DNA of 63,610 nt, the filler included, from Reclinomonas americana ATCC 50394 (lineage: Eukaryota), in assembly GCA_048213135.1 (NCBI GenBank). It is 17 parts of 17 records of this genome, joined end to end, with 100 filler letters (N's around TTAATTAATTAA, not from the genome) between each part and the next. Parts side by side here need not be neighbours in the genome. Positions count along the whole stretch, not along the records: positions 53,156 to 63,610 come from AFZH01023661.1; 16 more parts are not named here. One strand, given 5' to 3'. The position numbers and the translations under genes were made by a program. This document shows, piece by piece, positions 12,543-63,610 of this stretch; the stretch's first letter is position 1, and each line of letters opens with the position of its first letter. Below the pieces are notes generated by a model. The model saw only the letters and a program-made list of their open reading frames with translations, made no database searches and was not told where the DNA came from.

Positions 12543-12893
12543 GTCATTCGTGCTCACACTCGCAAAACCAAAACGAAGAAGTGTACACTCATAGGGGACA
12601 AGCAAGGGGAAGGACTTTTTGACGCGTCTCATGGCGCCGAACTGCCGCCGGCTGCGTGTGCTGCAGCAAGTTGCTCCACGCCTCGCCTGCGAAGCTCCAC
12701 CAGCTCCTCCTTCCAGCCAAGCATATCGCACAGCTCGAGAACCACCTGCGTGGGCGCAGAAGTTAGGCGACTTCACAGTGCAAGAACTGCACANNNNNNN
12801 NNNNNNNNNNNNNNNNNNNNNNNNNNNNNNNNNNNNNTTAATTAATTAANNNNNNNNNNNNNNNNNNNNNNNNNNNNNNNNNNNNNNNNNNNN

Positions 12894-16158: not shown

Positions 16159-16853
16159 CGCGCCAGGGTGAAGAACCCGTCGGATTGCGGCACCGAGAAG
16201 AACCATTTGTGCCCGGTTATCAGATAGACCCGGCCGTCAGGCGTATCCTCGAGGAAACGCGCCGTGGTCTGGGTCTGGCGCAGGTCCGAGCCGCCCTGCT
16301 TCTCGGTCATCGCATAGCCGATGCTGGCGCTCTCCTTCAGCGCCACCGGTAGCGGGCGCTTGTCGTAGCGGCCCGAGGTGATCTTCTGCCGCCAGAGCGC
16401 AAATTCCGGCTGGGCGAGGCCGGGAAATGCGGCATAGGTCATGCCGGTCGGGCACCCCGTCCCGTGCTCGACCTGGTTCCAGAGATAGGAGAGGACGGCG
16501 CGAGCGAGATGGCCGTTCGGCTCGCTCGTCTTCCAGGCGAGCGAGGGCACTTCATGAGCGAAGGCCAGCGCCATGAGCTCATGCCAGGCCGGATGGAACT
16601 CGATCCAGTCGATGCGATTGCCGTAGCGGTCGTGAGTCCTGAGCTCAGGCACATGGCGATTGGCGAGGCGGGCGAGTTCCTGCACCTCGGCGTCGCCGGC
16701 CCGGGCGCCGAGCGCCGTCGCCTTGTCAGCGACCCAGGGCGCCCCGCGCGCGACGATGCCCCGCAGCACCGCATCACCGGAGAAGGCGTTCCAGCCGATG
16801 GCGGGCCGGGCCTGGTTGAGGACTTGGTGAGTCGCGTAAGCGTGGACGGTCAT
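16159..16853 (-). CDS. AidB-like acyl-CoA dehydrogenase, N-terminal part (bacterial)
   Basis: THQVLNQ, HDRYGNRID.IEFHPAWH.LM, GCPTGMTYA, AMTEKQGGSDLR and ITGHKWFFSVPQSD. Its start overlaps the upstream stop (ATGA). Confidence 0.9.
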
Positions 16854-18382
16854 TCCGCCGCCTCCTGTGTCGTCACGCGCTCCGGCACTTCGCAGCCGGT
16901 GACGCAGCAGCGGCCGGGTTGCTTGCTGACGCGCGAGCCGTCGGCGAGCACGCCGCGATCGAGCAGGCTCTCGACCAGCGCGACCTTCTCCATGACGGGG
17001 TAGTTGCGCCAGATCTCGCGCTTCATCGCCTCGGGCGAGCCGCCGCCATGCAGCGAGATCACCGAGTACCAGCCGGCCTCCTTGGATACGGTGAGGTCCT
17101 CGATGAAGCGGGCGACCTCGGCGCGCTGCTCATAGGGGATATCCGGCCGTCCGGTCAGCACGGCCGCGAGCGAGGCCGAGGTCTCGGGATTGTGGTCCTC
17201 GTCCGGACCGGGGAGGGCGACGACGAGGCCGCCAGAGACATAATGGGCGATGCGGTGCATGTCGTAGATCTTGGTAGCGAGCAGCAGCTTGCCGATATTG
17301 GCGAAAACTGCGTCGGGCATCGCCACGCCCGAAGCGTCCTTGCTGCAATAGACCGAGGCCGCGACGCCGCAGGCAAAGAAGCTCTCGGTGATGGTGATCA
17401 GCTCGACTAGCTGCTCGCGGACATGGGAGTGCCTGTCGGCATCGAGTCCATTCGCTTCGACTATCAGCGCGCCGGCACCGATCAGGAGGTCGCCGAAGCC
17501 GGCCCGGGCAGCGATGCAGCTCTGGCGGTGATGGGTGGCGTAGCTGGTGGTGAGATAGCCGGCCTCCTCTGTCTCGCCGGCCATGAACACGCGCTCCCAG
17601 GGCACGAAGACGTCGTCGAACATCACCGCACCGGTCGACTGGCCATATTTCGCCGAGAACTTGGCGGCGGGATCGCCCGGGCGCCCGGCCGGGCGCGCGA
17701 CGATGGTGATGCCCTGCGCATCGCAGGGCACGGCGCAGCAGACGGCGAAATCCTCGTCGCCCTTGGCGTGGGTGCGGCAGGGCATGACCAGGAATTCGTG
17801 GACATAGGGCGCGCCGGTGACGATCGCCTTGGTGCCGCGGATGACGACGCCGTCGGGGCGCCGCTCCTTGATGTGGACATAGGAATCGCGATTGGCTTGC
17901 TGCCCCGGCCGCAGCGAGCGGTCGCCCTTGGCGTCGGTCATGGCAACGCCGCAGGTCAGGTCCTCATCCTGGATACGGTGCATATAGGCGAGGAAGCGCT
18001 GGGTGTAATCGCTGCCGTGATTGGCGTCGGCCCGCACCGTCGCCTGCAGGATGCCGTTGAAGGCGTCATGCGTCAGGTAGCGCTGGGCGCAACCGGAGAT
18101 CTTGCAGACCAGACGAACGGCCTCGAGCTTGGCGAGCAGGTCGCTGGACGAGGCGTCGATATGGAGCATGCGGTTGACGGTCTTGCCGGACGAGCCCTGC
18201 ACCGCCGTCATGATCGGCCGATAGGCCTCGTCATGGGCGAGGTCATAGGTGATACCGATACCGTTGATCCCCGGGAGCAGGAGCTTTTCGTCGGCGACGC
18301 TCTCGACCCGTTGCCCGCCGACGAAGACGCGCGGTTGGTAGGCACGCAGGGATTCGCGGTAGCCGGCGGCGTCCATCAGCAT
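16850..18382 (-). CDS. 4-hydroxybutyryl-CoA dehydratase / HpaB-family flavoprotein (bacterial)
   Basis: 510-aa ORF with a GGAGG RBS. Motifs AMTDAKGDRS.RP, IRGTKA.VTGA, FDDVFVPWERVF, HRQS and HGGGSP. Confidence 0.88.
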   Translation of the reverse strand: MLMDAAGYRESLRAYQPRVFVGGQRVESVADEKLLLPGINGIGITYDLAHDEAYRPIMTAVQGSSGKTVNRMLHIDASSSDLLAKLEAVRLVCKISGCAQRYLTHDAFNGILQATVRADANHGSDYTQRFLAYMHRIQDEDLTCGVAMTDAKGDRSLRPGQQANRDSYVHIKERRPDGVVIRGTKAIVTGAPYVHEFLVMPCRTHAKGDEDFAVCCAVPCDAQGITIVARPAGRPGDPAAKFSAKYGQSTGAVMFDDVFVPWERVFMAGETEEAGYLTTSYATHHRQSCIAARAGFGDLLIGAGALIVEANGLDADRHSHVREQLVELITITESFFACGVAASVYCSKDASGVAMPDAVFANIGKLLLATKIYDMHRIAHYVSGGLVVALPGPDEDHNPETSASLAAVLTGRPDIPYEQRAEVARFIEDLTVSKEAGWYSVISLHGGGSPEAMKREIWRNYPVMEKVALVESLLDRGVLADGSRVSKQPGRCCVTGCEVPERVTTQEAAE

Positions 18383-18497
18383 GCTAGCCTCCTCCCGNNN
18401 NNNNNNNNNNNNNNNNNNNNNNNNNNNNNNNNNNNNNNNNNTTAATTAATTAANNNNNNNNNNNNNNNNNNNNNNNNNNNNNNNNNNNNNNNNNNNN

Positions 18498-39270: not shown

Positions 39271-39465
39271 AGAAAGAGCAATCACCACTCAGTCCAGAAA
39301 CAATGCCAGGGGTCAATGCAAACACAATCATCACTCCCCTTTCTCTCTCTCTCTCTCCTACTCTCNNNNNNNNNNNNNNNNNNNNNNNNNNNNNNNNNNN
39401 NNNNNNNNNTTAATTAATTAANNNNNNNNNNNNNNNNNNNNNNNNNNNNNNNNNNNNNNNNNNNN

Positions 39466-44364: not shown

Positions 44365-44671
44365 CTACCGCCGCCCTGCGCCATACTGCGCCTCGTGCAG
44401 GCGCCGGTAGATCCCCGGCCGCTGCACCAGCTCCTGATGCCGGCCCTGCTCGGCGACGCCGCTCTCGTCGATGACGATGATGCGGTCGGCGTCCTGGATC
44501 GTCGCCAGGCGATGCGCGATCACCAGCGTGGTCCGGCCCTTCGACAGTTCGGCGAGCGAAGCCTGGATCGCCCGCTCGGTCTCGGTGTCGAGCGCCGAGG
44601 TCGCCTCGTCCAGGATCAGGATCGGCGGGTTCTTCAGGAACATGCGGGCGATGGCGAGGCGCTGCTTCTGC

Positions 44672-44703
<32 letters not shown>

Positions 44704-46089
44704 CACCGTGTCGAGCCCATCGGGCAAACGCGCGATCATCTCGTCGAGCCGGGCGCGCCTGGCGGCCTCGGTGATCTCCTCCTCGCTCGCGGTCAGCTTG
44801 CCATAGGCGATGTTCTCGCGGAGCGTCCCGGCGAACAGGAAGACGTCCTGCTGGACGATGCCGATCTGGCCGCGCAGCGACGCCAGCGTCATCTGGCGGA
44901 TGTCGATGCCGTCGATGGTGATGCGACCGCCCTCGACATCGTAGAAGCGCGGCAGCAGCGAGCAGATCGTGGTCTTGCCGGCCCCTGACGGCCCGACGAA
45001 GGCGATGGTCTCGCCGGCGCGGATCGAGAGGTCTATCCCCTTCAGGATCTTGCGGTCCGCCGTATAGCCGAAGCTTACATTCTCATAGGCGATGTCGCCC
45101 TTGAGGCCGGAGACGGTGATGGCGCCGGGCAGGTCGGCGATATCGGGCCGCGTATCCAGGAACTCGGTGTAGCGCCGGAAGCCGGCGATCCCCTTCGGAT
45201 AGGTCTCGATCACCGAGTTGATCTTCTCGATCGGCCGGAAGAACACCGTGACCAGCAAGAGGAAGCCGACGAAGCCGCCGGCGCTGAGGTCGCCGATCAG
45301 CACGTAATAGGCGCCGGCGATCATCACCGCCATCTGGGTCAGGCGCATGCCGAAATAGGAGAGCGAGGTCGAGGCCGCCATCAGCCGGTAGGCGTCGAGC
45401 TTGGTGCGGCGATAGCGCTGGTTGTCGACCGCGAACAGGCTGCGCTCGTGCTCCTCATTGGCGAAGGCCTGGACGACGCGGATGCCGCCGACATTCTCCT
45501 CGATGCGGGCATTGAACGAGCCGACGCTGCCGAACAGCTTCTGCCAGTTCGCCGTCATCCGCCGGCCATAGCGGCTGGTCAGCCAGGCGATCAAGGGCAC
45601 GATCGTCGCGGTGATCAGGGCGAGCTGCGGATGCACCATCAGCATCAGCGCGAAGGCGCCGATGAAGGTCATCACCGCGATGAACAGGTCTTCGGGCCCG
45701 TGATGGGCGACCTCGCCGATCTCTTCCAGGTCCTTGGTCAGGCGCCCGACGAGATGGCCGGTCTTCTGGTTGTCGAACCAGCCGAAGGAGAGCTTCTGCA
45801 GATGGTCGAACGCCTTGCGGCGCATCTCGGTCTCGATATTGATGCCGAGCATGTGGCCCCAATAGGTCACCACCACCATCAGCCCGGCATTGATGAGATA
45901 GATCGCCAGCAGGCCGAGCGAGGCCAGCACGATCAGGCTCCAGTTTCCGTTCGGCAGCAGCTGGTCGACGAACAGTTTCACCGCGATCGGGAAGCCGAGT
46001 TCGAGCAGCCCCGATACCACGGCGCAGCCGAAGTCGAGCATGAAGAGCCCGCGATGGGGACGGTAGTAGGCGAAAAAGCGGGCGAGCAT
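44365..46089 (-). CDS. Fused permease/ATPase ABC exporter
   Basis: TM domain, Walker A GPSGAGKTT, signature LSGGQKQR and Walker B ILILDEATSALD. Confidence 0.95.
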
Positions 46090-46537: not shown

Positions 46538-48496
46538 TTATCCGCCCAGCCGATATTTCACGAACCCCTCGCCGGCATCGCCGACCGGCTGCGCCTTCAG
46601 TGTCTCCGGCTTCTTGCTCACGGCGGCAGGGGAGGTCGGGAAGGTGACGTTGACGGTCGCGGGCAGCGGCTTCAACGACCAGTTGTTGTCGGCCGCCGGA
46701 TTGATCGTCTTCTTCTCGATGATGTAGCGCACGATCACGTCGCGGTTGAGGTCGGGTGCCTCCAGCACCAGCGTCGTCTTGGTGCCCGGGAAATTGCCGC
46801 CGCCGGAGGCGCGGTAATTGTTGGTGACGATGATGAACTCCGCCTTCTCGTCGATCGGCTTGCCCTGGAAGGCGAGGTCGACGATGCGGTGCGCGTCCGG
46901 CGCGACCAGCTTGCCGTCGCCGTCATAGCGCGAGGCTTGCGTCACGTCGATCTGGTAGCTGACGCCGTCGATCACGTCGAAATTGAAGGCCGGGAAGCCC
47001 GGGTTGATCAGCGGCTGCTCCTCGGTCTTGGCGACGTCGATCTGGTTGAAGATGCCGGCCGAACGCTCTAGCCATTCGCGGATCTGCGCGCCGGTGACTT
47101 TCACGACCTGCACCGTGTTCGGGTAGAGATAGATGTCGGCGACGTTCTTGATCGCGATCGGCCCGGCCGGGATGTCGGTGAAGAAGGCCGGCCCGGCCCG
47201 CCCGCCCGATTTGAACGGCGCTGCGGCCGAGAGGATCGGCAAATCCTTGTACGGCGTCTGCGCCATCAGCGGCTTGGCATAGGCGATCTGCGCCTCGGCC
47301 ACGATCTGCACCGACGGGTCGTCGGCGACGAGGGCGAAATAGCTGTTGATCGGCGCCGTCGTGGTGCCGACAGGCTCGCGCATATAGCTCAGCGTCGCTT
47401 CATGATCGGCCTTCACTGTCGCCAGCACGGCGGCCTCGACCTCGGCCTTCGACACGATCTTTCGGTCGGGCGTGCGCTCATAGATCGGCTTGGGATCGAC
47501 CTTGAAATCGGCGATGCGCCAGCGCCCGTCGCGCTTTTCCAGCTCGAGGTCGACGATGCCGACATGCGAGCCCCAGAAGCCGGGCTGGCAGGCCGGCTTG
47601 CCATGCAGCGAGCCCTTCTTGTTGTCGACGCCCTCGATGCCGTCGAAGGCCTTGCCGCCCGGGAAGACGAGGTGCTGGTGGCCGGTCAGCACGACGTCGA
47701 TGCCGTCGAGCTTGGCGAGGTGCAGCGCCGCATTCTCCTCGCCGCCCTTGCGCTCGCCGCCGGCGATGCCGGAATGGCAGAGCGCGATGGTGAGGTCGGG
47801 ATGGGCCTGAGCGATCTCCGGCAAGTATTTCTGCGCGGCATCGACGATGTCGGTCGCGGTCACCTTGCGGTCGAGATTGCCCTTGTCCCATTGCATGATC
47901 TGCGGCGGCACGAAGCCAATCACCGCGATGTTGAGGACATGCTTCGCGCCGGCCTCGTCCTCGAAGCTCTGCTCGAAGATGCGCCAGGGCTCGATCAGCG
48001 TGCCGCCACCGACCTTATCGACATTGGCGCAGACGATCGGGAACTCGGCGCGGGCGAGGCCGTGCTCGAGGAAGTCGAGCCCGTAGTTGAACTCGTGGTT
48101 GCCGAGCGTGCCGCACTGATAGGGCAGGGCATTCATCGCGGCGATCATCGGATGGGTCTCGCCGGCCTTGAGCCCCTTCTTGTAGGCGACGAAATCGCCG
48201 AGCGAGGAGCCCTGCAGGAAGTCGCCATTGTCGAAGAGAAGGCTGTTCTTCGCTTCCGCCTGCGCTGCCTTGATCAGGTTCGCTGTCTTGGCGAGGCCGA
48301 CCGTGTCATCGGGCGCGTCGCGGAAATAGTCATAGGGCACGACGTTGACGTGGAGGTCGCTGGTCTCCAGCAACCGCAGTTTGAGCTTGGCCGGCGCCTG
48401 CGCCGCCAGTGGTGTGGCCAGCGCTCCTGCTGCGGCGATGGCGGCCCCGGCCTTGAGCGTGTCACGGCGGCTGAAACGGAGGGCGCGGTCCATCAT
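46538..48496 (-). CDS. cpdB: 2',3'-cyclic-nucleotide 2'-phosphodiesterase / 3'-nucleotidase
   Basis: Tat signal SRRDTLK. Motifs ETSDLH, DNGDFLQGS, GNHEFNYG, HSG, TGHQH, YLYPNT and NNYRASGGG. Confidence 0.93.
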   Translation of the reverse strand: MMDRALRFSRRDTLKAGAAIAAAGALATPLAAQAPAKLKLRLLETSDLHVNVVPYDYFRDAPDDTVGLAKTANLIKAAQAEAKNSLLFDNGDFLQGSSLGDFVAYKKGLKAGETHPMIAAMNALPYQCGTLGNHEFNYGLDFLEHGLARAEFPIVCANVDKVGGGTLIEPWRIFEQSFEDEAGAKHVLNIAVIGFVPPQIMQWDKGNLDRKVTATDIVDAAQKYLPEIAQAHPDLTIALCHSGIAGGERKGGEENAALHLAKLDGIDVVLTGHQHLVFPGGKAFDGIEGVDNKKGSLHGKPACQPGFWGSHVGIVDLELEKRDGRWRIADFKVDPKPIYERTPDRKIVSKAEVEAAVLATVKADHEATLSYMREPVGTTTAPINSYFALVADDPSVQIVAEAQIAYAKPLMAQTPYKDLPILSAAAPFKSGGRAGPAFFTDIPAGPIAIKNVADIYLYPNTVQVVKVTGAQIREWLERSAGIFNQIDVAKTEEQPLINPGFPAFNFDVIDGVSYQIDVTQASRYDGDGKLVAPDAHRIVDLAFQGKPIDEKAEFIIVTNNYRASGGGNFPGTKTTLVLEAPDLNRDVIVRYIIEKKTINPAADNNWSLKPLPATVNVTFPTSPAAVSKKPETLKAQPVGDAGEGFVKYRLGG

Positions 48497-48722
48497 CGGC
48501 TCCTGAGCGAGGTGTTGGCAGAGACGCTAGCACCATGGCAGGACCGTGACACGGGGGAAGATGGTACTACCGGCTCACGCCCTCCATCCGCACGCGCCCG
48601 TCGGCACCTTCCGTCCAGGCCGNNNNNNNNNNNNNNNNNNNNNNNNNNNNNNNNNNNNNNNNNNNNTTAATTAATTAANNNNNNNNNNNNNNNNNNNNNN
48701 NNNNNNNNNNNNNNNNNNNNNN

Positions 48723-48757: not shown

Positions 48758-48981
48758 CAGTCAGTCACGCGCCTTCCGTTCCGCGCGAGAGATCGCTGTC
48801 AGCCCGATGAAGTCAAATAGCGTTTCGCGATGGCCGCCATAGCGCCAGCTCCATAGAAAAACCCTATGGCCTTCATCGCTTTATCCTTCTTGTCCGACTG
48901 CTGGCTCTATGCGCCCCTTTTCGCCGGACGAGGCGCCGCTCAAGAGCGCCCGATGTCATGCGAGGTTCAGGGAGGACGCTC

Positions 48982-50277
48982 ATGAAGACGATGAAACTGG
49001 TGGTTGCCGCATTGGCCGGCACGCTGCTCGCAGGGCACGCGTTTGCGCAGGACAAGCCGAAGGAACTGGTGGTCGGCATCGCCACCTTCCTGTCGGGCCC
49101 GGCCTCGGTCTTCGGCGTGCCTGGCCGCAATGCCGCCGACCTGCTGATCGCAGAGATCAACGCCAAGGGCGGCGTACTCGGCGTGCCCCTGAAGCCGGTC
49201 TATGTCGACGAGGGCGCCGGCACCAACCAGCTCCTCTCCGAATATCGCCGCGTCGTGCAGGAGCAGGGCGCGCAGGTGATGCTGGGGGCGATCTCCTCGG
49301 GCTCCTGCAATGCGCTCGCACCCGTCGCCGAGGACCTCAAGGTCGTCAACGTGATGTGGGATTGCGGCACGCAGACCATCTTCGAGGACGGCAAGTGGAA
49401 ATATTCTGTCCGGACGCAGGCTCATGCCGGCGCCGAGATGATGGCGACGCTGCTCTACCTGATGAAGGTGAAGCCTGACTTCAAATCGGTCGCCGTGGTC
49501 AACCAGGACTATGCCTGGGGCCGTGAATCCTGGGCGCTGCTGCAGGCCGGCCTGAAAGCGCTGAAGCCGGACGTCAAGGTCGTCGCCGAGCTCTTCCCTA
49601 AGTTCGGCGCGCCTGATTTCTCGACCGAGATCACTCGCCTCTCGGCACTGCGGCCCGATGTGGTGATCTCGACCTCCTGGGGTGGCGATCTCGACACCTT
49701 CGTCCAGCAGGCGGCGGCGCGCGGCCTGCTGAAGCAGTCGACCTTCGTGCTGCCTCTGGCCGAAAGCTCGCTGGAGCGGCTCGGCAATGTCCTGCCGGAA
49801 GGCGTGATCGTCGGCTCGCGCGGCGATCATTACTGGCGCCATCCCAAGCACAAGGACACGCCGGAGATGCAGGCCTTCGTCAAGGCGTACAAGGACAAGA
49901 CTGGCGTCTACCCGATCTACCCGACCTTCCACATGCAGCAGGCCCTGACCGGCCTGGTGAAGGCCTATGAGAAGGCCGGCGCCGGCGGCAAATGGCCGAG
50001 CAAGGAAGAGGTCATCGCCGCCTTCGAGGGGCTGGAGTTCAAGTCGCTGACCGGCACGATCACCATCCGCCAAGACCACCAGGGGCTGGAGGACCAGTTG
50101 CTTGGCACGACCAAGCGCGTGCCGGAGTTTCCCTTCGCGGTCTACGACAAGATGGCGCTCTATCCCGGCAAGCTGGTCACCACGCCGCTCGGCGAGAAGT
50201 CGCTCGACTGGTTCGCCAAGGTGAAGCCGGACCTCGTGACCGACAAGTCGATCGAGACCTTCGACTACGCGAAGTGA
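48982..50277 (+). CDS. ABC transporter substrate-binding protein, LivJ/branched-chain type
   Basis: GGAGG RBS, signal peptide, LSGPAS.FG, INAKGGVLG and DYAWGRE. Confidence 0.92.
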   Translation: MKTMKLVVAALAGTLLAGHAFAQDKPKELVVGIATFLSGPASVFGVPGRNAADLLIAEINAKGGVLGVPLKPVYVDEGAGTNQLLSEYRRVVQEQGAQVMLGAISSGSCNALAPVAEDLKVVNVMWDCGTQTIFEDGKWKYSVRTQAHAGAEMMATLLYLMKVKPDFKSVAVVNQDYAWGRESWALLQAGLKALKPDVKVVAELFPKFGAPDFSTEITRLSALRPDVVISTSWGGDLDTFVQQAAARGLLKQSTFVLPLAESSLERLGNVLPEGVIVGSRGDHYWRHPKHKDTPEMQAFVKAYKDKTGVYPIYPTFHMQQALTGLVKAYEKAGAGGKWPSKEEVIAAFEGLEFKSLTGTITIRQDHQGLEDQLLGTTKRVPEFPFAVYDKMALYPGKLVTTPLGEKSLDWFAKVKPDLVTDKSIETFDYAK

Positions 50278-51035: not shown

Positions 51036-53651
51036 GAACAAACAATGGTCAGTCGGTCAGTCAGTCAGTCAACTTTCATCTGCACACGAAGAGGTGAACC
51101 CGGACGCACCAAGTTTGCGGGGTTGTTGTCGACACCAGGCAACACAGCCAGGTGCAGAGCAGTCTCGCAAAAGTTGGAAATGTATGCCGTGTCCACACCG
51201 GGGCCAGCCTCGAAGACGGCCTTCTTGTCGCTGTAGCTCTGGTCGGCGAACACCTGGCGGAACTGGTCGGGACTGATTGTCCGCGGCTGGCAGAACGACG
51301 CGATGGTCAGTGGCATCTTGATGCCGGCACCGAATGCGCGTCCGTTGACACTATTATGATGAGGGAAAGAGTTAGTGGGGGAGGATTAATATCCACCGGA
51401 AAAAACGGGCGCAAACGCAACGAGTATGAGAGCCTGAGAATAGGCGCATCCGAGAACGGGGCGTAGCACTCGCACAGGTAGAGCAGGAGGCCTTGAGCAC
51501 CACCCTCAAGAGCGAACGGGTTCTTGCTCTCCTTGAAACGCAGGCCTGCAGCACAATCATCAGCATCAGCATCAAAAGCATCAACTTGACAAGCAATGGC
51601 AGGCATGTCACTCACCGTGGACTTCGTCAATCTCGCCAGTCAGCTCCGACACTTGTGCGCTCGACTTGTTGTACAGGTAGAAGCCAATTTGTGCCAGGCG
51701 ACCATCCTTGAACTTGCCACGGTAGGTCACGGTCAAGAATTGATCTGCAACAGCAGACACAATAAGATCCACGCCTATCTCCTAATCCCTCAGATCCAAA
51801 AAGGATGGCGACTCACCGTCGTGCACCACACCCTCGCCGTTGCGAATGACATCGTCGTACGCCTGCAGGTTGTCGGCGGTCGGTGTGAAGTTCACGCTGC
51901 CACCGCTGCTGCCAGCAGACGCCGCCGCTGGGCCCATGTCGAACATGTCCATAAAGTCGCCACCCTTCTTGGCACCGCCACCTGCGCCGGCGGCTGCTGG
52001 TGCAGACGAGGGACCACCGAAAATGTCCATAATGTCGACCGTGGTCCTGGAGCCAGACGCTGCCGGTGCCGCGGCCGCTGGGGCACTCGGCTTCGAGCCA
52101 AACATGTCGTCACCACCGAACAGGTCGGCAGCACCGCCACCACTGGCCGCCTTTGTGCGCACTGCCGGAACCGGCGGCGCCTCGGCCTCCTCCAGACCAC
52201 CCTCGCCGAACTGAGCCTCGGCCTGTACATCGACGAAAGGAGGTAAGCAACTGTGGTGCGGCATGTGGTTCACCACCGGCAGTAACAACAACTAACCGCC
52301 ACCCAAATGTTGCGATCCTCGGTGGCACGCTGGCGCTCCTCAATCAGCTTCAGCAGTGAGCTCTGGCGCTCGAACTCGGGCAGCGTGCTCAGGGTGAAGT
52401 TCTGCACATCGGGAAAAACCACAATCACAATGTGCTCACTCTGACGGTCACATGATCGGCAAGCCGAACGAACCACCACACCCGGACCAGCCTGCACGAG
52501 TGCCTTGAGCTCGCACGCGCGCTGCTGCAACTCCGTGTCCATCGAGTCAGTGAACTTGTCGAACAGCTTGAACACGGCCTGTTGCAGACGGCGGTTGTTC
52601 TGCACATGCGTCGTGACACGACGTGTCAGAAGGCGCACCAAGTGAAATAGCACAGACTTGACGTGTGGGGCGCACCAGATCACGCTTGAGGATCTTCGCG
52701 AAGGCGTTGAGCAGAATCGCGCGAGTGGTGTTGGTGACCGTGGCGAACTTGGTGTGCAGCACCTCGAACTGGCGCTCTGGTGGTGTCTCATCGTCAATGA
52801 GGAAACCAAACTCGCCGATGATGTAGCCGCCAATCTTGACGGCGTTCTCGTGAGCGGCGGGCGACTCCAGAGCCTACACACAAGACACGCAATCACATTA
52901 TTATTAATATCATCACGTCGGCAACCCACGACACGCTGCGACACGCACCTCCAACACCGTGGAAGAAGCGTATCGCTTGAGTGCCGTGTCGGCGTTGGTG
53001 ACGATTTGAATCACACGGAACCAAATGTCGTCCGAGACGTAGTCGCCGGCGTAGGNNNNNNNNNNNNNNNNNNNNNNNNNNNNNNNNNNNNNNNNNNNNT
53101 TAATTAATTAANNNNNNNNNNNNNNNNNNNNNNNNNNNNNNNNNNNNNNNNNNNNGCGTCGGAGGAGAGCGGAGTGTGCACCGAGGGCCAAGTAGAGCGA
53201 GGGTGGGAGGAAGACGCATCATGACCTCACAAAAGGACGAGCAAGTCCTCACACACGCACATACCAAGACAAGGAGACACACACGCACATGAAGACAAGC
53301 AAGCAGAGTGGTAAAGTCACTAGTGCATGTGTAGCCGCAGAGGGCGGCGGTCTCCGTCACCGAATCTGCTGCCTCACTGCAACTGCATCACGTGCTGCAT
53401 GACAATCGACGAGTGCATGCTCAACTACACCAGCAGTCAATCGCTCCCTGTCTCACCACTCACTACGACGCAAGAGAGAGAGCGACGCAAGAGAGAACAA
53501 ACGTGTCGCGTGCGTGTCTTCTTCTACTGCTGGTGCGAGCGCGCGCGCGCACATGTCCATCTCCTCTCCCCGCACGCACACGCCAACACACACACACAAC
53601 GCAACATCCGCGGATCTCCGCGATGAAGTTCTGCAATCCTCGCATCTCCAT
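51036..53651 (-). CDS. AP2A: AP-2 complex alpha-adaptin; first exon at 53651, middle lost in the gap, trunk end, hinge and ear at 51036-53055
   Basis: [59 protein letters not shown] and P.FERQSSLL. Confidence 0.93.
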
Positions 53652-53900
53652 GGTAGGCGGCCTGTCAAAACACACACACCACTCCCTGCAAAATCAAGAT
53701 GTGCCTAATGTGTTTGCGTCACCCATCAGATGAAACACAAACACAAACACAGTGAAACAAAAGCGCAGAGAGAGAGGAGTGAGTCACACACAAAGTGGGA
53801 TAGGCGGGGAGGAAGCGACACGTGCGCACTACGCACCCTGCAGGCGATAGCTATCCGTTGATCCACTATCCATCGTCGTTCAATCGTCAATCCCATCAAA

Positions 53901-56043
53901 ATGCTCGGCGCAGTTGCGTCTCACTCGCACACACTCACACACACACTCTCTCTCTCCAAGCGCACACAACGCACACACTCACACACGCGCATATGTCTGC
54001 ATGCATGCGAGATGGGGCACAAGTGTGCGCTTCATGTCGCCATTTACCGCGCACTCTCACACGCTTCTTCTTCTCTCCTGTGTGTGCAGTCGCGTCGCTA
54101 CTTCTCACTTGATGTGAGCCGCCTTGGGCGTGGCCCACGTGGCTTGGGTGGCCGCTCGTCTGTGTCGGGTGTGGTGGCCACTGTGTTTGGCAACACGGGC
54201 TTCCTCGGTCGTTACACTGTCAATCGCCTTGGTGCGTGTGTGTGCTGCAGTGACCAACCTGCTGCATGAGTGAGTGACGACTGTGGGTGTGTCTATATTC
54301 AGGCAAGATTGGCTCGCAAGTCATCATTCCGTACCGCGGCGATGAGCACGACTATCGTCATCTGAAGCTCATGGGAGATCTGGGTCAGATTGCGCCCATT
54401 CGCTTCCATGTTGCGTCGCAACACACACCTCTACTGCTCTCTTCCTCTCTTTCTCTTGGACGCGTGGTCCTTAGATCTGCTGCTCCCTCCAATCACTTTG
54501 GAGGTGTTCCCTGAATGTGGGGTGCATGTCGTGAGTAGCAAATGAGTCATAACTGCGCAAGAAGGATTTTGAGGGGAAGCTTTTTGCTGGCGGAAGCAGA
54601 AAGGGGGAGCGGAAGAGAAGGTCGCCTCGTGCTTCCTTTTTCTTTCCTCTCTCTCTTTGTGCGTCGCTGGATAGACACACTGCTCCGGAGGGAATGTTGG
54701 GCGCTTGTCACTGGCTCGGGAAGAGTTTTTCTTCCCACTGCTGTGGCACGCCCGACGCAACCTCGGTTGTCTTTCGGGGCTTCGTGGCTGATGCGGATGC
54801 ACTGCGGTCGCTCTCTCTGTGCGACTCGCATATTCGTTATCAGTTCCCACATTTTTATATCAACTTTCACTCCCCGCCTTACTTTCTCTCTCTCTCTCTC
54901 TTCCACTCTCCGATCGCGCTTTGCGTCCCACATGCCGCCCCTCCTCACCTCTGTATCCTGCGTCGTTCCACTGCAGCCGCGAGACCAGGACTCAATCAAC
55001 TTGGCCGTGTCGCGCTCCAATGTGGTGATCAACCTGATGGGCAGCAGCCACCCCACACGCAACTACTCGTTCGAGTACACCAACGTAACACTGGCCGAGA
55101 ACGTGGCAAGGGTGCGGTGTGCGCAGCCTTGAGTCCCAGTGTGCACTTGGGAGCTCACTCGCGTAAAAAATGCAGGCATGCGCGGAGAACGGCGTGTCGC
55201 GCTTGATCCACGTCTCTTGCCTCGGTGCCGACAAGTATTCGCCCTCCGAGTCGCTGGCCACCAAGGTCTGGCGCCTCTGCGTGGCGAGAAAAGAAGATTG
55301 TTTCTCATCACGATGTGTGTGGTGCTCTTGACGCAGGCTGCGGGCGAGGAGGCCGTGCTGAAGGCGTTCCCGTCGGCGACGATTTTGCGCCCCGGCCTGC
55401 TCTTTGGTCCCGAGGACAACTTCCTCAACGCGCTGGCCACCAGCATTCGTGTGTTGTCGTTTGTGCCGATGATTGCCAGCGGCCGCGCCAAGCAGCAGCC
55501 AGTCCATGTTTCGTCCGTGTGATCACTGCGTGGTGATGCTTGGCGGCCGTTGAGCGGGATACTGACACACATACAACAGGCCGCCGATGTGGCTGACGCC
55601 ATTGTCGAGAGCATTTTCCACGAGGATTCAATGGGTCAGACGTACGAGCTCGGCGGGCCCGAGGTTATGCGTCTGCAAGAGATAACTGACCTCATTTTCG
55701 AGGTCACCGAGCGCAAGCCTCACTTGCTACCAAGTGAGTGCTTCCTCTTCTCTTGGTGTGTCTGTCGTGTTGCTGCTCATGCACGCTAACTTGCTCTCTG
55801 CGATTCCCAGTGCCGCTCACGTTGGCCAAGTTGTATGCCGCTGTGCTGGAGAAGCTGCCAAATCCGCCAATCACTCGTGATCAGATTGTTCGCCTCGGTC
55901 TGCAGAACACCGTGTCGCCTAACGCCAAGACGTTTGCCGACTTGCACATTTCCCCGCGGTCTCTGCGAACGGAGGCTCCCTTCTTCCTCAAGCGTTACAG
56001 GAAGATGGGCGGCAATCCGGATCCCGCAGTGGACAGCGAGTAA
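53901..56043 (+). CDS. NDUFA9: NADH dehydrogenase (complex I) 39-kDa accessory subunit
   Basis: [69 protein letters not shown] and YELGGP. The start codon is tentative. Confidence 0.94.
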
Positions 56044-56120
56044 GCACTTGCGTGCGGCCACCGCCACTGAGAAAAAGAAGAAAGTGTACGCACGCTCGTG
56101 TTGATTTGTATGACAAGTGA

Positions 56121-59100
56121 GTGATTGATGGAGAAGAAAGAAAGAGAGAGAGAGAGAGAGGAAGGCAAAAAAGAAGTGAAGAAGTCGCCGGTCAGCCTCA
56201 CGAACTCGGTACTTACACCGAAATGCAGTGGACGGGACTCGGTAGAGACACAGACAGACTTCTTCGACCTGGAAACGGTGTCGAGCATGCTGTACTTGAG
56301 CACAGCACAGTGATCCTGGCGAGTGAGCTTGTGGGTGAGGAGGGAGACTGCATGCTCAGAGAGAGAGAGATTCTTGTTTCGGTAGTTGCATTGTATTCAC
56401 ACTGGCAGCACAGTGTGGACCAGTCCAGCAGCAGTTGTCACCGATCCAGATGGTGGCAAGCTATACTCAGGCGACAAAAGATGAGAAGAGGGATAGGAAG
56501 CAAAAAAAGAAGCGAAGAAGCCGCCGGTCTGCCTCACGAACTCGCCACTGACACCGAAATGCTATGGACGAGACTCGGAAGAACAGACACAGACGGACTT
56601 CTTCGACCCGGAGATGGTGCCGAGCATGCTGTACTTGAGTGCTGCACGGTGAGGCTGGTGGGTGAGCTTGTGGGCAAGGAGGGAGACTGCATGCTCAGAG
56701 AGAGTGAGAGAGTGAGATTCTTGTTCGGTATTTGCATCTCAGTGTGAACAGTCCAGCAGCAGCTTGTCACCGATCCAGATGGTGGTGTACATGTTGCACA
56801 CGAGCGACAAAAGAGAGTGAGAGAGGAGCAAAAAAGCGAAGAAGCCGCCGGCCAGTCTCACGAACCTGCCACTGACACCGAAATGCAGTGGACGAAACTC
56901 GGAAGAGACACAGACGGACTTCTTCGACCTGGAGATGATGCTGAGCATGCTGTACTTGAGTGCAGCACAGTGACTCTGGCGAGTGAGCTTGTGGGTGAGG
57001 AGGGAGACTGCATGCTCACAGAGAGAGAGGGAGATTCTTGTTTCGGTATTTCATTTGTTCACACTTGCAACACAGTGTGGATCAGTCCAGCAGCAGTTGT
57101 CTCCAATCCAGATGGTGGTTCACATGCTGTACCTGAGTGGCAAAAGGAAATAGAGAGAGAAAGCAAAAAAAGAAGTGAAGAAGCCGCCGGCCAGTCTCAC
57201 GAACTCGCCACCGACACCGAAATGCAATGGACGAACTCGGAAGAACAGACACAGACGGACTTCTTCGACCTGGAGATGCTGTCGAGCATGCAGTACTTGA
57301 GCGCACTATAATGATCCTGGAGGGTGAGCTTGTGGGCGAGGAGCGAGACTGCATGCTCGCAGAGAGAGGGAGTGATTCTTGTTTCGGTATTTCATTGTTT
57401 TCACACGTGCATCGCAGCGGCAACACAGTGTGGATCAGTCCAGCGCAGTTGTCACCGATCCCGATAGTGATTCACATGCTGTTCTCGAGCGAAAAAAGGA
57501 AGAGAGATAGAGAGGGAGCAAAAAAAGAGCGAAGAAGCCGCCGGCCAGTCTCTCGAATTCCGCCACTGACACCGAAATGCAATGGACGAGACTCGGAAAC
57601 AGACACAGACGGACTTCTTCGATCTGGAGACGGTGTCGAGCATGTTACACTTGAGTGCAGCACAGTGAGCTCGGTGGGTGAGCTTGTGGGTGAGGAGAGA
57701 GACTGCATGCTCACAGAGAGAGAGATTCTCGTTCGGTATTTACACTGACAACACAGTGTGGATCAGTCGAGCAACAGTTGCCTCCAATCCTGACGGTGGT
57801 GCGCATGTTGCACAAGAGCGACAAAGAGAGAGAGAGAGAGGAGAACAAAAAAGCGAAGAAGCCGCCGGCCAGTCTCACGAACCCGCCAGTGACACCGAAA
57901 TGCAATGGACGAGACTCGGAAGAACAGACGCAGACGGACTTCTTATCTGGAGATGGTGCCGAGCATGCCATACTTGAGTGCCGCACAGTGATCCTGGAGG
58001 GCGAGCTTGTGGGTGAGGAGAGAGACTGCATGCTCAGAGAGAGAGTGAGAGATTCTTGTTTCGGTATTTCATTTGTTCACACCGGCAACACAGTTCCAGC
58101 AACAGTTGCCTCCAATCCAGATGGTAGTACACATGCTACGCTAGAGCGACACAAGGAAGAGAGAGAAAGCAAAAAGAGAAGTGAAGAAGCCGCCGGTCAG
58201 TCTCACGAGCTCGCCACTGACACTGAAATGCAGTGGACGAGACTCGGAAGAACAGGCACAGACGGACTTCTTCGATCTGGATATGGTGCTGGGCATGCTG
58301 CACTTGAGCACGGTATAGTGAGTCTGGTGGTTGAGCTTGTTGGTGAGGAAGGAGACTGCATGCTCAGAGAGAGAGAGAGATTCTTGTTTCGGTATTTCAT
58401 TGTTTTCACACTGGCAACACAGTGTGGAGCAGTCCAGCAACAGTTGCCTCCAATCCTGACGGTGGTGCGCATGTTGTACACGAGTGACAAGAGAGAGAGA
58501 GGAGACAAAAAAGCGAAGAAGCCGCCGGTCTGCCTCACGAGCCCGCCACTGACACCGAAATGCAATGGACGAGACTCGGAAGAACAGACACAGACGGACT
58601 TCTTCGACCTGGAGGTGGTGTCGAGCATGCAGTACTTGAGCACACCATAGTGAGCTCGCTCAGTGAGCTTGTGGGTGCGGAGAGAGACTGCATGCTCACA
58701 GAGAGAGATTCTTGTTCAGTACTTCATCGTTTTCACACTGGCAACGCAACGTGGATCAGTCCAGCAGCAGTTGTCACCGATCCAGATGGTGGTGCACATG
58801 CTGTTCTCGAGCGACAAAATGAAAAGAAGAGGGAGATGAAGCAAAAAGAGAGCGAAGAAGCCGCCGGTAAGCCTCACGAACCTGCCACTGGCACCAAAAT
58901 GCAGTGGACGAGACTCGGAAGAACAGACACAGACGGACTTCTTCGATCTGGAGGTGGTGCCGAGCATGTTATACTTGAGTGCCGCACAGCGATCCTGGTG
59001 AGTGAGCTTGTGGGTGAGGAGGGAGACTGCATGCTCAGAGGGAGATTCTTGTTCGGCATCTCATTTCATCACACTGGCAACACAGTCTGAAACAGTCCAG

Positions 59101-62062
59101 CAGCAGTTGTCACCGATCAAGATGGTGGTGTACATGTTGCACACGAGCGACAAGGAGAATGAGAGAGAGAAAGCAAAAAAAGAAGTGAAGAAGCCGCCGG
59201 TCAGTCTCACGAACCCGCCACTGACACCGAAATGCAGTGGACGAGACTCGGAAGAGACACAGACGGACTTCTTCGACCTGGAGGTGGTGGTGAGCATGCT
59301 ATACTTGAGTGCAGCGCAGTGAGCCCGGTGGTTGAGCTTGTGGGTGAGGAGGGAGACTGCATGCTCACAGAGAGAGAGAGAGATTCTTGTTTCGGTATTT
59401 CATTTGATCATGATCACACTGGCGCCGGCAACACAGTACGGATCAGTCCAGCAGCAGTTGTCACCGACCCAGATGATGGTACACATGCTGCACAAGAGCG
59501 ACAATAAAAGGGGAGAGAGAGGAAGCAAAATAAAAGCGAAGAAGCCGCCGGTCTGCCTCACGAGCTCGCCACTGACACCGAAATGCAGTGGACAGGACTC
59601 GGAAGAACAGACACAGACGGACTTCTTCGACCTTGAGATGGTGTCGAGCAAGTTATACTTGAGTGCCGCACGGCAAGCTCAGTGGACGAGCTTGTGGGTG
59701 TGGAGGGAGACTGCATGCTCAATGAGAGAGAGAGAGATTCTTCTTGTTTCGGTATTTCATTGTTCACACTGGCAACTCAGTGTGGAGCAGTCCAGCAACA
59801 CGCAGCGGGTTGTCTCCACTGATGGTGCACATGCTGTACAAGAGCAACAAAAGAAGGAAGCAAAAAGAGAGTGAAGAAGCCGCCGGCCAGTCTCACGAAC
59901 CCGCCACTGACACCGAAATGCAGTGGACGAGACTCGGAAGAGACACAGACGGACTTCTTCGATCTGGATATGGTGTCGAGCATGCCATACTTGAGCACGG
60001 TACAGTGAGTCTGGTGGTTGAGCTTGTGGGTGCGGAGGGAGACTGCATGCTCAGAGAGAGAGATTCTTGTTTCGGTATTTCATTTTGTTCACATCGGCAA
60101 CACAGTGTGTAACAGTCCAGCAACAGTTGCCGCGAATCCAGTTGGTGGAGCACATGTTACACTCGGCGAGCAAAAGAAAGAGAGAGAAAGAGGGAGACGA
60201 AGGAAAAAGAATGAAGAAGCCGCCGGCCAGCCTCACGAACTCGCCACTGACACCGAAATGCAGTGGACGAGACTCGGAAGAACAGACACAGACGGACTTC
60301 TTCGACCTGGAGGTGGTGTCGAGCAAGTTATACTTGAGCGCACTATAATGAGCTCGCTCAGTGAGCTTGTGGGTGCGGAGAGAGACTGCATGCTCACAGT
60401 GAGCTTGTGGGTGCGGAGAGAGACTGCATGCTCACAGAGAGAGATTCTTGTTCGGTATTTGATTGTTTTCACACGTGCACCGGCAACACAGTGTGGATCA
60501 GTCCAACAACAGTTGTCACCAATCCTGGTAGTGGTACACATGCTGTACTTGAGTGACAAAAGAAAGAGAGAGAAAGAGGGAGACGAAGGAAAAAGAATGA
60601 AGAAGCCGCGGCCGCCGATCAGCCTCACAAGCCCTGCCACTGACACCGAAATGCAGTGGACGAATCTCGGAAGAACAGACACAGACGGACTTCTTCGATG
60701 TGGAGGCTGTGTCGAACATGCTATACTTGAGTGCCGCACGGCAAGCTCAGTGGACGAGCTTGTGGGTGAGGAGGGAGACTGCATGTTCACAGAGAGAGAT
60801 TCTTGTTTTGGTATTTCATTGTTCACACTGGCAACACGGTGTGGACCAGTCCAGCAGCACTTGGCTCCAATCCAGACGGTGTTCATGCTGTACTCGAGTG
60901 ACAAAAGGAAAAGAGAGAGAGCGAGAGAAAGCAAAAAGAGTGAAGAAGCCGCCGGTCAGCCTCACAAGCTCGCCACTGACACCGAAATGCAGTGGACGAA
61001 ACTCGGAAGAACAGACACAGACAGACTTCTTCGACCTGGAGGTGGTGTCGAGCGTGCCATACTTGAGTGCAGCACAATGAGCCTGGAGGGTGAGCTTGTG
61101 GGTGAGGAGAGAGACTGCATGCTCACAGAGAGAGAGAGATTCTTGTTCGGTATTTCATTTGTTCGAGAATATTGCACCTCAGTGTGGATCAGTCCAACAG
61201 CAGTTGTCACCGATCCAGTTGATGGTGCACATGTTGCACTCGAGCAACAAAGGAAAGAGGGAGAGGAGGTGGGGAGAGCAAAAAAGAAAAGTGAAGAAGC
61301 CGCCGGTCTGCCTCACAAACTCGCCACTGGCACCGAAATGCAGTGAACGAAACTCGGAAAACGGACACAGACGGACTTCTTCGGTCTGCCTCACAAACTC
61401 GCCACTGGCACCGAAATGCAGTGAACGAAACTCGGAAAACGGACACAGACGGACTTCTTCGATCTGGAGACTGTGCCGAGCATGCCATACTTGAGTACAG
61501 TACAGTGGGCTCGGTGGGTGAGCTTGTGGGTGACGAGCGAGACTGCATGCTCACAGACAGAGAGAGAGAGATTCTTGTTTCGGTATTTCATTTGTTCACA
61601 TTGGCAACACTGTCCATCAACAGTTGTCACCGATCCTGATGATGGTGGTACACATGCTGCACCTGAGCAACAAAAGAAGAGAGATAGAAAGGAAGCAAAA
61701 AGAAGTGAAGAAGCCGCCGGCCTGCCTCACAAGCCCTGCCACTGACACCTAAATGCAGTGGACGAAACTCAGAAGCACAGACACAGACGGACTTCTTCGA
61801 TCTGGAGATGATGTCGAGCATGCTGTACTTGAGTATCGCATCGTGTGCTTTCTGGTGGAGCTTGTGGGTCACACACAGGCTGCACGTCACCGAGATTCCC
61901 TTTCCCTCTTCCCCACTGTCTGCACGCTCGCTGAACATACCGACCAGTTACGCATCACTGAGAGTTCCTGCCGGCGTTGTCCAAGCAGCTGCTGTAGAAA
62001 AAATGATTAAAGCACAAAAAGAACCAAAAAATAGGAGAGAGAAGCCGCCAGTCACGCCACTT
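56121..62062. repeat. Tandem array of 17 diverged ~325-355-bp units plus a terminal remnant
   Basis: The anchor GAAGAAG(C/T)CG starts at 56178, 56514, 56838, 57177, 57531, 57855, 58183, 58515, 58854, 59187, 59538, 59873, 60213, 60599, 60942, 61293 and 61707. A remnant lies near 62040. Confidence 0.97.
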
Positions 62063-62247
62063 ATCCTCACTCGACCGAGTTAAGTTTACAACCTAGCAGA
62101 TAGACTCGAGTGGCGGACACATGCGGTCTTCTCCGACAATGACACAGCGACCGCGCTTGCACTTTTGCGGCTGCAGTGGCCAGTGTGTTGGGGAAGGATT
62201 GTGGGACAGGCAGTGTGCGGATCACAAAAGTTATACATGCACACAAT

Positions 62248-63372
62248 TTACGACATCAAAATGACTAGAAGAACAATCAGCACTGCCAGTAAGCAGCAAA
62301 TGATGCACCACTTGCCACTGTCTGCACACACGATCGCAGTCGGTGAGTGAGACCGCTGAGTGAACGTGGAGGCACGCACGCAATACCTTTGGTATTCTTC
62401 AAGAGGTGATCGATCTTGCGCAGACTGCGTTCCAGTCTGCTGTTCGTGTTGTCCAGCGCGGCGTCGAGCTTTCTCAGTTCACTGTCACGGCATTAGTCAT
62501 CAAGCGCCACGGCACCATGGAGACGACGAGGACTGACGCAACGGCTCCTGTGCAGCGAGTTCCTGGTTGATGCCGAGGCTGACATCGTGCAATCGCTTCA
62601 CCGCGTCCGACAAGTCGTCCAGTCGCCTGTCTTGCTTGGCGATCATCACCTGCGTGCGCAACCGCCACCCTCGTCAACGCGCTGTCTTCTTCTTCTCTCA
62701 GCAGTGGACTGCACTTACCTGCTGCTGTGAATAGTGCTGCGCCAACCGCTCAGTCGGGCTGACAGCGCGCCCTCCTCCTCCTCCTCCAAGACCATTCATC
62801 GCTGCTGCTGACGATGACGACGACGATCCACTCGTTCGCCGCCCACTGCCAAGACCCAGCGCCTCACGAAAGTCTGTGCCACCATCAGCGATCGGCGCTC
62901 GACCGCGCTCCACATCGCCTCCATCGTCATCATCATCGTCGCCACCGCCACCGCCACGTCCTCCTCCTCGACCGAATCCCGACGTTCTTATGTCCCTTAC
63001 ACGCACACCACCCAGCGCATCACCGCTGCCGCCACTCGCACCGCGCAAGAGCAACTGCACCACGAATGTGTGTCACGCGTGTCAGTTCAACTTCGTTCAT
63101 CACACAGCAGATAGGAGAGAAAGAAGAGAGAAAGAAGAGAGAGAGAGAGAGAGAGGCACAGATCATTGGTGCACATCAACCTCACTAGGGACACGCACAC
63201 AGGCCTGTCCCTCTCTTGTGCGCGCGTGTGCTGACCATGGCTGACCATGGTCACCCACTCTCCAACCACTCTCCCACCTTCACTCCACCCATCCGCATAC
63301 ACTCGCTCACAAACACACCTCACGCTCTTCCCGATCGTTGTGCTTCTTGCGCCCTGCGCCTGGCCGTGACAT
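62248..63372 (-). CDS. Qc-SNARE (syntaxin-6/8-like), 5 exons
   Basis: Spliced product QQQVMIAKQDRRLDDLSDAVKRLHDVSLGINQELAAQ..LRKLDAALDNTNSRLERSLRKIDHLL, then a C-terminal TM helix (WCIICCLLAVLIVLLVILMS*). Confidence 0.88.
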
Positions 63373-63610
63373 GTTGTGTTGTGTATGCGAGGGTACAATC
63401 GCGACTCGCGGCACTCGCCCGTTACTGCGTCTTTCTGGCATGAGGTGGAGAGAAGGTATGAAAATCAGTGGGAGAGTTCACGGACCACGCGAGATGTTCG
63501 CTCTTCGCAACGTTTTGCACCGGCGGGAAGAGGAGAGGGACAGTGGTCCGTCCATCGGCCGCCACTCTTTTTCGTTAAGTGTTTTTTTGTCAGTGACTTG
63601 GAGAGGAAGT

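Follow-up and report, generated by a model that had tools for sequence, protein, structure and literature searches.

A tandem array of putative minus-strand hairpin-RNA modules between two convergent genes of Reclinomonas americana

A tandem array of approximately 6 kb, located between the convergent genes of NDUFA9 and of a tail-anchored Qc-SNARE-like protein in Reclinomonas americana ATCC 50394 (assembly GCA_048213135.1), may be read as a family of small hairpin-RNA modules, arranged in tandem, whose expression would proceed from the minus strand, i.e., the strand of the SNARE gene, and the probability of this reading is put at roughly one half. The array was analyzed within a stretch of 63,610 nucleotides (the window), which is made up of 17 parts joined with 100-N filler, with positions 53,156-63,610 being derived from AFZH01023661.1. 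Judged from its sequence, the array reads as at least 18 copies of a structured-RNA module, each with approximately 200 nt under constraint, and it looks less like a decaying satellite than like a set of small genes for structured RNAs, of a kind not yet described.

The tandem organization is readily recovered by Tandem Repeats Finder (TRF), which returned a period of 339 and 15.4 copies, with 75% matches and 11% indels over positions 56153-61382, and by anchoring on GAAGAAGCCGCC, which gives 17 head-to-tail units of 324-414 bp with starts from 56178 to 61707. A first-pass annotation of this DNA had described 17 diverged units between convergent genes, and this description holds, although the extent of the array has to be amended, given that an 18th copy is present at 62038-62134. 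The near-invariant blocks described in that annotation do occur once per unit, separated by purine tracts of variable length. The plus strand of the array is purine-rich and the minus strand pyrimidine-rich throughout, as the composition skew indicates, and each unit has two homopurine-homopyrimidine tracts together with dyad symmetry.

The best-conserved block of the unit is an imperfect hairpin of 88-98 nt, which is found in all 17 units when the copies are folded singly on the minus strand, and which has a stem of approximately 38 bp and a UUCG loop. In the RNAalifold consensus, this block forms one long hairpin on the minus strand, whereas only the outer stem is predicted on the plus strand. 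Across the 17 hairpins, the minimum free energies (MFEs) lie between -28 and -49.5 kcal/mol on the minus strand (mean -41.4, median z -4.8) and between -23 and -42 kcal/mol on the plus strand (mean -29.4, median z -2.7), and none of 200 shuffles was as stable as the copy itself in 15 of the 17 cases on the minus strand, compared with eight of 17 on the plus strand. The minus-strand hairpins also have the size and stability expected of precursors in clusters of microRNAs (miRNAs) or other hairpin small RNAs, while the remaining ~245 nt of each unit have no significant structure on either strand (z near 0). The invariant 5' arm includes bulged U residues, and a 6-nt insertion lies close to the 3' end of the hairpin of unit 14. 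An 8-bp helix, GAGCATGC/GCATGCTC, can also be drawn around the variable block, with one compensatory change in unit 14, which is too little to build on.

A covariance model made from the 17 hairpins was run unfiltered over the whole window, where it recovered these hairpins, a partial duplicate in unit 16 and the 18th copy (20.3 bits, E 0.0085), and nothing else below an E of 0.1. The 18th copy matches 62 of the 91 consensus positions (68%), forms a 33-bp hairpin (-42.7 kcal/mol, z -4.3), and has changed on both arms, as in the second pair, where A-U is replaced by G-C.

The constraint on the unit is markedly uneven, with the mean diversity per column differing approximately tenfold between segments of the 17-unit alignment. 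The values run from 0.031 in the CTCAAGTA box, 0.047 in the 5' arm and loop of the hairpin, and 0.054 in a 33-nt upstream block that has no gaps, through 0.118 in the 3' arm of the hairpin and 0.209 in the second half of the unit, where indels are numerous, up to 0.365 in the 24-nt stretch between the upstream block and the box, which is indel-free in every unit, and 0.456 in the first pyrimidine tract. The mean column identity of the hairpin is 87%, and approximately 180 nt of the unit are free of indels, which are frequent elsewhere. The uneven conservation noted in the first-pass annotation was thus confirmed, given per-column diversities of 0.03-0.05 in some blocks and 0.37-0.46 in others, and the uniform neutral divergence that it had named beforehand as the finding that would speak against it was not observed.

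The variation within the stem was examined on the 17-row alignment, in which the 38 pairs comprise 636 cells. When read as minus-strand RNA, 619 of these cells are paired (97.3%), compared with 522 (82.1%) in the plus reading, and the G-U cells number approximately 106, as against no more than 17 A-C cells. Thirteen pairs vary on one side through changes compatible with G-U pairing, all seven stem polymorphisms present in at least four units maintain the pairing, and the disrupting variants occur in two units at most, with unit 1, at the edge of the array, accounting for six of the 17 unpaired cells. If the substitution spectrum of the spacers is taken as a neutral model, 49.8 pair-keeping and 79.9 pair-breaking cells would be expected, and 46 and 17 were observed, so that pair-breaking change is reduced by a factor of nearly five, and pair-keeping change appears to proceed at approximately the neutral rate. 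These counts support the view that the long hairpin of the best-kept block varies in the manner expected of a paired minus-strand RNA.

The hairpin is also accompanied by other elements at fixed positions. In 16 of the 17 clear units, boxes are found at constant offsets upstream, that is, GAGCATGCAG at -92, CCCACAAGCTC at -70, CTCAAGT at -35 and CTCCAG at -9, with the offsets in unit 6 being shifted by 2 nt, and the boxes of unit 16 preceding its partial hairpin copy. Of the 15 units measured, 13 have an indel-free stretch of exactly 93 nt reaching from the first box up to the hairpin, and this upstream domain has a mean z of -1.0. The stretches between the boxes are free in sequence and fixed in length, and in the consensus the CTCAAGT box is followed by a TATA-like GTATAG, which varies among the units. 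A T run of 4-7 begins 3-8 nt past the hairpin in all 17 units, and the 18th copy, read by eye, has a T6 run 9 nt past its hairpin and GTCCCACA at -71. By analogy with known small-RNA genes, the upstream boxes may act as a promoter.

Given this, the structured-RNA or guide cluster that had been proposed in the first-pass annotation is upheld in its first part, through the pairing of the minus-strand hairpin, and not in its second, in that the guide idea finds no support as such: the 24-nt hypervariable stretch, which lies indel-free between fixed boxes, could equally well be a spacer of fixed length or a guide. The coordinates of the array, its hairpins, the elements of a representative unit and the flanking exons are collected in Table 1.

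Table 1. Positions of the array, its hairpin copies, the elements of unit 8 and the flanking exons, as counted along the window (MFE in kcal/mol, followed by the z score)
Feature	Position	Strand	Details
NDUFA9, last exon region	55738..56043	+	converges on the array; stop 56041-56043
Whole tandem array	56150..62134	-	17 clear units and a degenerate 18th copy; TRF, anchoring, covariance model, composition skew
Hairpin, unit 1	56178..56265	-	-28, z -1.5; edge unit, weakest; 6 unpaired stem cells
Hairpin, unit 2	56514..56604	-	-44.2, z -6.7
Hairpin, unit 3	56838..56925	-	-38.2, z -4.1
Hairpin, unit 4	57177..57266	-	-40.8, z -4.7
Hairpin, unit 5	57531..57620	-	-43.9, z -5.5
Hairpin, unit 6	57855..57945	-	-35.9, z -3.3
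Hairpin, unit 7	58183..58273	-	-45.0, z -4.8
Oligo-T run, unit 8	58507..58512	-	T6, 3 nt downstream of the hairpin
Hairpin, unit 8	58515..58605	-	-49.5, z -6.7; representative unit
CTCAAGT box, unit 8	58634..58640	-	invariant, at -35
Hypervariable spacer, unit 8	58641..58664	-	24 nt, -36 to -59; indel-free, 0/24 columns gapped
Conserved upstream block, unit 8	58665..58697	-	33 nt, -60 to -92; includes CCCACAAGCTC at -70 and GAGCATGCAG at -92
Hairpin, unit 9	58854..58944	-	-37.7, z -4.0
Hairpin, unit 10	59187..59274	-	-44.5, z -5.8
Hairpin, unit 11	59538..59628	-	-46.1, z -6.2
Hairpin, unit 12	59873..59960	-	-44.8, z -5.5
Hairpin, unit 13	60213..60303	-	-44.8, z -6.0
Internal duplication, unit 13	60359..60441		38 bp; TRF
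Hairpin, unit 14	60599..60696	-	-38.6, z -2.2
Hairpin, unit 15	60942..61032	-	-41.1, z -5.1
Hairpin, unit 16	61293..61382	-	-38.0, z -4.1
Internal duplication, unit 16	61304..61466		78 bp; TRF
Partial second hairpin copy, unit 16	61383..61446	-	from the 78-bp duplication; 49.6 bits, model positions 15-79
Hairpin, unit 17	61707..61798	-	-43.0, z -4.5
18th, degenerate copy	62038..62134	-	~114 nt downstream of the SNARE stop; covariance model
Qc-SNARE-like gene, last exon	62248..62321	-	tail-anchored; upstream of the array, same strand as the hairpins; stop 62248-62250

The hairpin, its strand bias, the constant spacing and the T runs are seen directly in the sequence, and from this layout we infer transcription, a type of polymerase and a role for the RNA, in the sense that each unit would be a small-RNA gene of its own, with an external promoter of the small nuclear RNA (snRNA) type or similar to those of RNA polymerase III (Pol III). 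The oligo-T run would then serve as the terminator, yielding a hairpin RNA of approximately 100 nt with a U tail, and the function would reside in the invariant 5' arm, for example, as a guide derived through Dicer or a platform for protein binding. The invariance of this arm, which extends to its bulged U residues, points to a sequence-specific use. Expression as separate small genes, each with its external promoter and oligo-T terminator, appears more likely than a single long precursor that is processed, which is the main alternative, and the class of these genes is possibly snRNA-type or Pol III-like. A narrower proposal is tentative and rather unlikely, namely, that the array is a battery similar to genes for short hairpin RNAs (shRNAs), in which each unit has an external snRNA-type promoter, a ~91-nt hairpin and an oligo-T run, and in which the 5' arm gives rise to guide RNAs or has another sequence-specific function. 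If this doubtful proposal were true, the battery would be a new multi-copy class of small RNA with no relative in Rfam. No site complementary to any 21-mer of the hairpins, at up to three mismatches, was found in the window. An unusual RNA of the spliced-leader type, which is a variant of the shRNA-like proposal, is less likely.

If the hairpin RNA is made, the array would represent an undescribed multi-copy family of small RNAs, and its layout of boxes, hairpin and T run would provide a handle on the transcription and processing of small RNAs in a poorly studied eukaryote. The paralogs of this one locus would then also illustrate cleanly how selection acts on RNA pairing. If no such RNA is produced, the array would still be an unusual old satellite with sharply block-wise constraint.

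A number of findings weigh against the expression of hairpin RNAs from the minus strand. Among the 17 units, none of the 38 pairs shows changes on both sides, the observed pairing values do not stand apart from those of the shuffle control, and the excess of pair-keeping change is not significant when counted by types of variant (13 of 28, where a proportion of 0.33 is expected, p = 0.10). The cell counts come from paralogous units, and are not independent, and there is circularity in the scoring of pairing, as the structure was derived from the same sequences. The plus strand, being that of an inverted repeat, also folds, and folding with DNA parameters gives much weaker hairpins and a small gap between the strands (-16.5 versus -14.5 kcal/mol). 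In the case of the 18th copy, the plus strand folds about as well as the minus strand, which supports the retention of the dyad and not the choice of a strand. The consensus structure has six single-nucleotide bulges, all of them in the 5' arm, which is unusual for substrates of Dicer or Drosha, and a search of one unit against Rfam at E values of up to 10 returned only chance-level miRNA matches, far below the gathering scores. Finally, the TATA-like element at -30 is not conserved, and the T run is found within a tract that is generally rich in pyrimidines.

Among the known RNA systems, the genes of the snRNA type, or type 3 Pol III genes, such as the U-snRNA genes of plants, resemble the array in having boxes at fixed distances with free sequence between them, and in the short module followed by a T run, which is present in all 17 units. 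In PMC9845283, the plant upstream sequence element (USE) has the consensus RTCCCACATCG and is placed at approximately -70, and a TATA box lies at -28 to -30. The array likewise has a box with a CCCACA core at -70, and its 18th copy has the corresponding element at -71. On the other hand, 6-8 of the 11 positions of the USE are matched, with only the CCCACA core being common to both, the TATA-like element varies between units, and the hairpin matches no known snRNA. According to a preprint (10.64898/2026.10.23.761446), the USE is absent from the U6 genes of chlorophytes and liverworts, so that the resemblance of the array to this element is only a lead.

Tandem clusters of miRNAs or hairpin RNAs, such as the miR-430 array of the zebrafish, also have many head-to-tail hairpins of precursor size, and the array shares with them the far better conservation of one hairpin arm, with the variable arm maintaining the pairing. 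Unlike such clusters, the array has a ~38-bp stem with six one-sided single-nucleotide bulges, rather than the mostly symmetrical mismatches of miRNA precursors, a 4-nt UUCG loop, no Rfam miRNA family above chance, and putative promoter boxes and a T run in each unit.

The gene arrays of spliced-leader RNAs consist of tandem units of a few hundred bp, in near-identical copies. The array is similar in its unit length, in the fixed spacing of its upstream boxes, and in its invariant 5' segment, which is followed by GU and pairs with sequence downstream of itself, and it also has a U run, then a G, further downstream and flanked by pyrimidines. It differs in the identity of its copies (76-87%), which falls short of near-identity, and in the putative leader of approximately 50 nt, which is almost wholly locked in a helix of -41 kcal/mol, and it has no clear Sm site and no 3' stem-loop. 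The setting is also different, given that genes in the window point in both directions and that the introns of the neighbours are ordinary GT-AG ones.

Transcribed satellites offer one other comparison, as in satellite 2 of newts, which has a unit of ~330 bp with a hammerhead ribozyme, and which the array resembles in its unit of ~340 bp with a structured element in each. The array differs from ribozyme-bearing satellites in matching no ribozyme or other Rfam family at E values of up to 10. Small RNAs derived from satellites are described for Toxoplasma in PMC2877743. The centromeric and other homogenised satellites are likewise organized head-to-tail, but their neighbouring copies are highly identical, which is not the case here. 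A search of 8.6 kb found no Rfam family in the array at E values of up to 1, ARAGORN predicted no tRNA genes, and C/D boxes, H/ACA boxes and a hammerhead core were not seen by eye in the array.

The relationships among the copies bear on the age of the array. Units 1-16 have pairwise identities of 76-87%, and neighbours are no closer to each other than distant units are, while unit 17 is 64-68% identical to the others. This star-like pattern without a neighbour effect provides no sign of recent homogenisation, such as concerted evolution would leave. Repeat-induced point mutation (RIP) was considered as a cause of the divergence and rejected, as the array has no RIP signature, with indices equal to those in the remainder of the window. 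On the basis of unit identities without a neighbour effect and of this absent signature, the array reads as old and stable. In the variable block, over 56266-61292, a mosaic of variants is common to non-adjacent units (such as units 8/13, 4/13, 11/14 and 7/12), which points to short-tract gene conversion among its units. Within the 339-bp unit, the two halves are also alike over approximately 55 nt (consensus plus-strand positions ~70-125 versus ~242-297, with four of 500 shuffles reaching the score), and the unit may be an old dimer of a ~170-bp monomer in which the hairpin was kept in one half only. In a blastn search, the rest of the window gave only (GA)n matches and no further copy of the unit, and a scan of metagenomes with a 20-nt invariant block gave four single matches, all of them without the other blocks, which were treated as chance. 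A search of the literature with the invariant sequences found only unrelated primers, and a search by concept found nothing specific.

A serious rival, if on balance a doubtful one, is that the array is nothing more than an old satellite or minisatellite of the ordinary kind, with an imperfect palindrome in its unit, such as the relic of a foldback element or of one similar to a miniature inverted-repeat transposable element (MITE), or of the dimerised ~170-bp monomer, with the blocks being kept by homology-dependent gene conversion or by a role at the DNA level, and with no part played by an RNA. The head-to-tail organization with a period of ~339 bp, the weakly similar halves of the unit, the conversion indicated by the mosaic variants, the folding of both strands and the lack of any double compensatory change would all be at home in such a satellite, as would the poor state of the copies at the edges, seen in the identity of unit 17, the weak model match of the 18th copy and the broken stem pairs of unit 1. 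Conversion tracts would not, however, spare a 46-nt arm beside a 40-nt arm with several variants of intermediate frequency, and the large excess of G-U over A-C cells is not predicted by constraint on the duplex. The barring of indels from ~180 nt of the unit and the absence of recent homogenisation also speak against this explanation, and no terminal repeats with a target-site duplication were seen by eye around the hairpin. A DNA element, whether centromere-like, as the first-pass annotation had also suggested, a boundary or a termination element, in which the dyad and the (GA)n tracts would adopt non-B conformations or serve as a protein-binding site, is very unlikely: the location between convergent genes, the unit length of about twice the nucleosome repeat, with its weak internal half-repeat, and the dyad symmetry with two homopurine-homopyrimidine tracts in each unit would suit it, but an array of 6 kb with identities of 76-87% is unlike the homogenised centromeric satellites, and the strand bias of the G-U cells points to reading as a single strand.

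The hairpins may also be real and yet derived from one long minus-strand transcript, either a read-through of the SNARE gene or an RNA of its own, that is cut in the manner of a polycistronic cluster of miRNAs or hairpin small interfering RNAs, and to which convergent transcription from NDUFA9 could add double-stranded RNA. This is unlikely, given that boxes at fixed spacing and a T run in every unit would be needless in a simple precursor, that Pol III, if involved, would stop at every T run, and that known Drosha- or Dicer-like substrates seldom show a small UUCG loop or one-sided bulges, although the array does lie directly downstream of the SNARE gene and on its strand, with NDUFA9 converging on it, its 18 similar hairpins have an invariant arm, and its minus-strand pyrimidine tracts are sense-oriented, like a tract just upstream of the SNARE start codon. 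The exon-cassette array suggested in the first-pass annotation, or a series of small protein genes on the minus strand with a frame of ~110 codons per unit (EHAVSLLTHKL...SRSKKSVCV...RPLHFGVSG...GGFF...CCWT), is highly improbable. A block of ~130 nt in each unit, 129 or 132 nt long in 11 of the 16 units measured, is indeed bordered by AG and GT dinucleotides in the manner of splice sites, and stop-to-stop frames of 97-126 codons span single units in several copies, beside the indel-free upstream stretch of 93 nt. Nevertheless, nine aligned unit translations found no homolog among 5.8 billion clusters (50-219 residues, word-indexed search), nor was there any among 1.84 billion representatives in a full HMMER scan; no Pfam family reached the cut-off, and the language-model recognition score of the Protein Atlas (1086) was within the range of shuffled proteins. 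The ratio of nonsynonymous to synonymous polymorphism (pN/pS) is 0.67 in the candidate frame, which is not distinctive beside 0.49-1.09 in the other five frames, some of them full of stops, and the variation has no 3-base periodicity. By reading, the variable pyrimidine tract leaves the frame intact in approximately eight of 16 units, as against one third by chance, on a strand whose pyrimidine richness makes stop codons rare anyway. The cassette model also has no downstream exon, because the array there runs into the antisense of NDUFA9. As had been claimed, no frame remains open across the array: the longest have 445 codons on the plus strand and 240 on the minus strand, and the register changes between units.

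The flanking genes are those previously named. The upstream gene on the plus strand, with several exons, is NDUFA9 (matches to NDUFA9 chains in PDB, E 2.7e-11), for which the top PDB matches are presumably plant or green-algal entries, and it has an apparent intron of ~500 nt at 54400-54940, rich in CT and CA tracts and with approximate boundaries, beside several short introns. A run of N at approximately 53050-53100 of the window, which appears as X in translations, lies between a minus-strand gene at ~52270-53010 and the start of NDUFA9. The gene on the other side has a tail anchor and three GT-AG introns of ~55-70 nt, and it reads as a Qc-SNARE, with a weak Pfam match of its last exon to SNARE (E 0.12). 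A palindromic stretch of GAC/GAT/GTC triplet repeats at 62801-62940, apparently part of the SNARE N-terminus, gave weak matches to mir-598 on both strands (23.7 and 22.6 bits, where the gathering score is 69), which were taken as chance.

Tracts of (GA)n/(CT)n are scattered over the window, at 9670-9695, 32188-32362, 34533-34963, 39339-39365, 54881-54910 and 63115-63155, among others. The last of these is sense-oriented and closely precedes the likely start codon of the SNARE gene, which suggests that such tracts are a usual feature of promoters or 5' untranslated regions in this genome.

Elsewhere in the window, open reading frames (ORFs) of 848 codons (5685-8231, minus strand) and 543 codons (11214-12845, minus strand) match no Pfam family, and the former found no homolog in a word-indexed search; both may be genes specific to the lineage, or else frames that arose by chance in GC-rich DNA. 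Four long ORFs without introns encode domains of bacterial type, at 16850-18442, 44365-46089 and 46538-48523 on the minus strand and 48811-50274 on the plus strand, with the domains being HpaB, an ABC exporter, a 5'-nucleotidase, with a weak match to a twin-arginine translocation (TAT) signal, and a periplasmic binding protein. The exact sequence of the ABC exporter protein is present in public collections, and a search of the Protein Atlas returned only ABC clusters of bacterial type. These four ORFs, which share the window with the intron-bearing NDUFA9 and SNARE genes, may be transferred genes.

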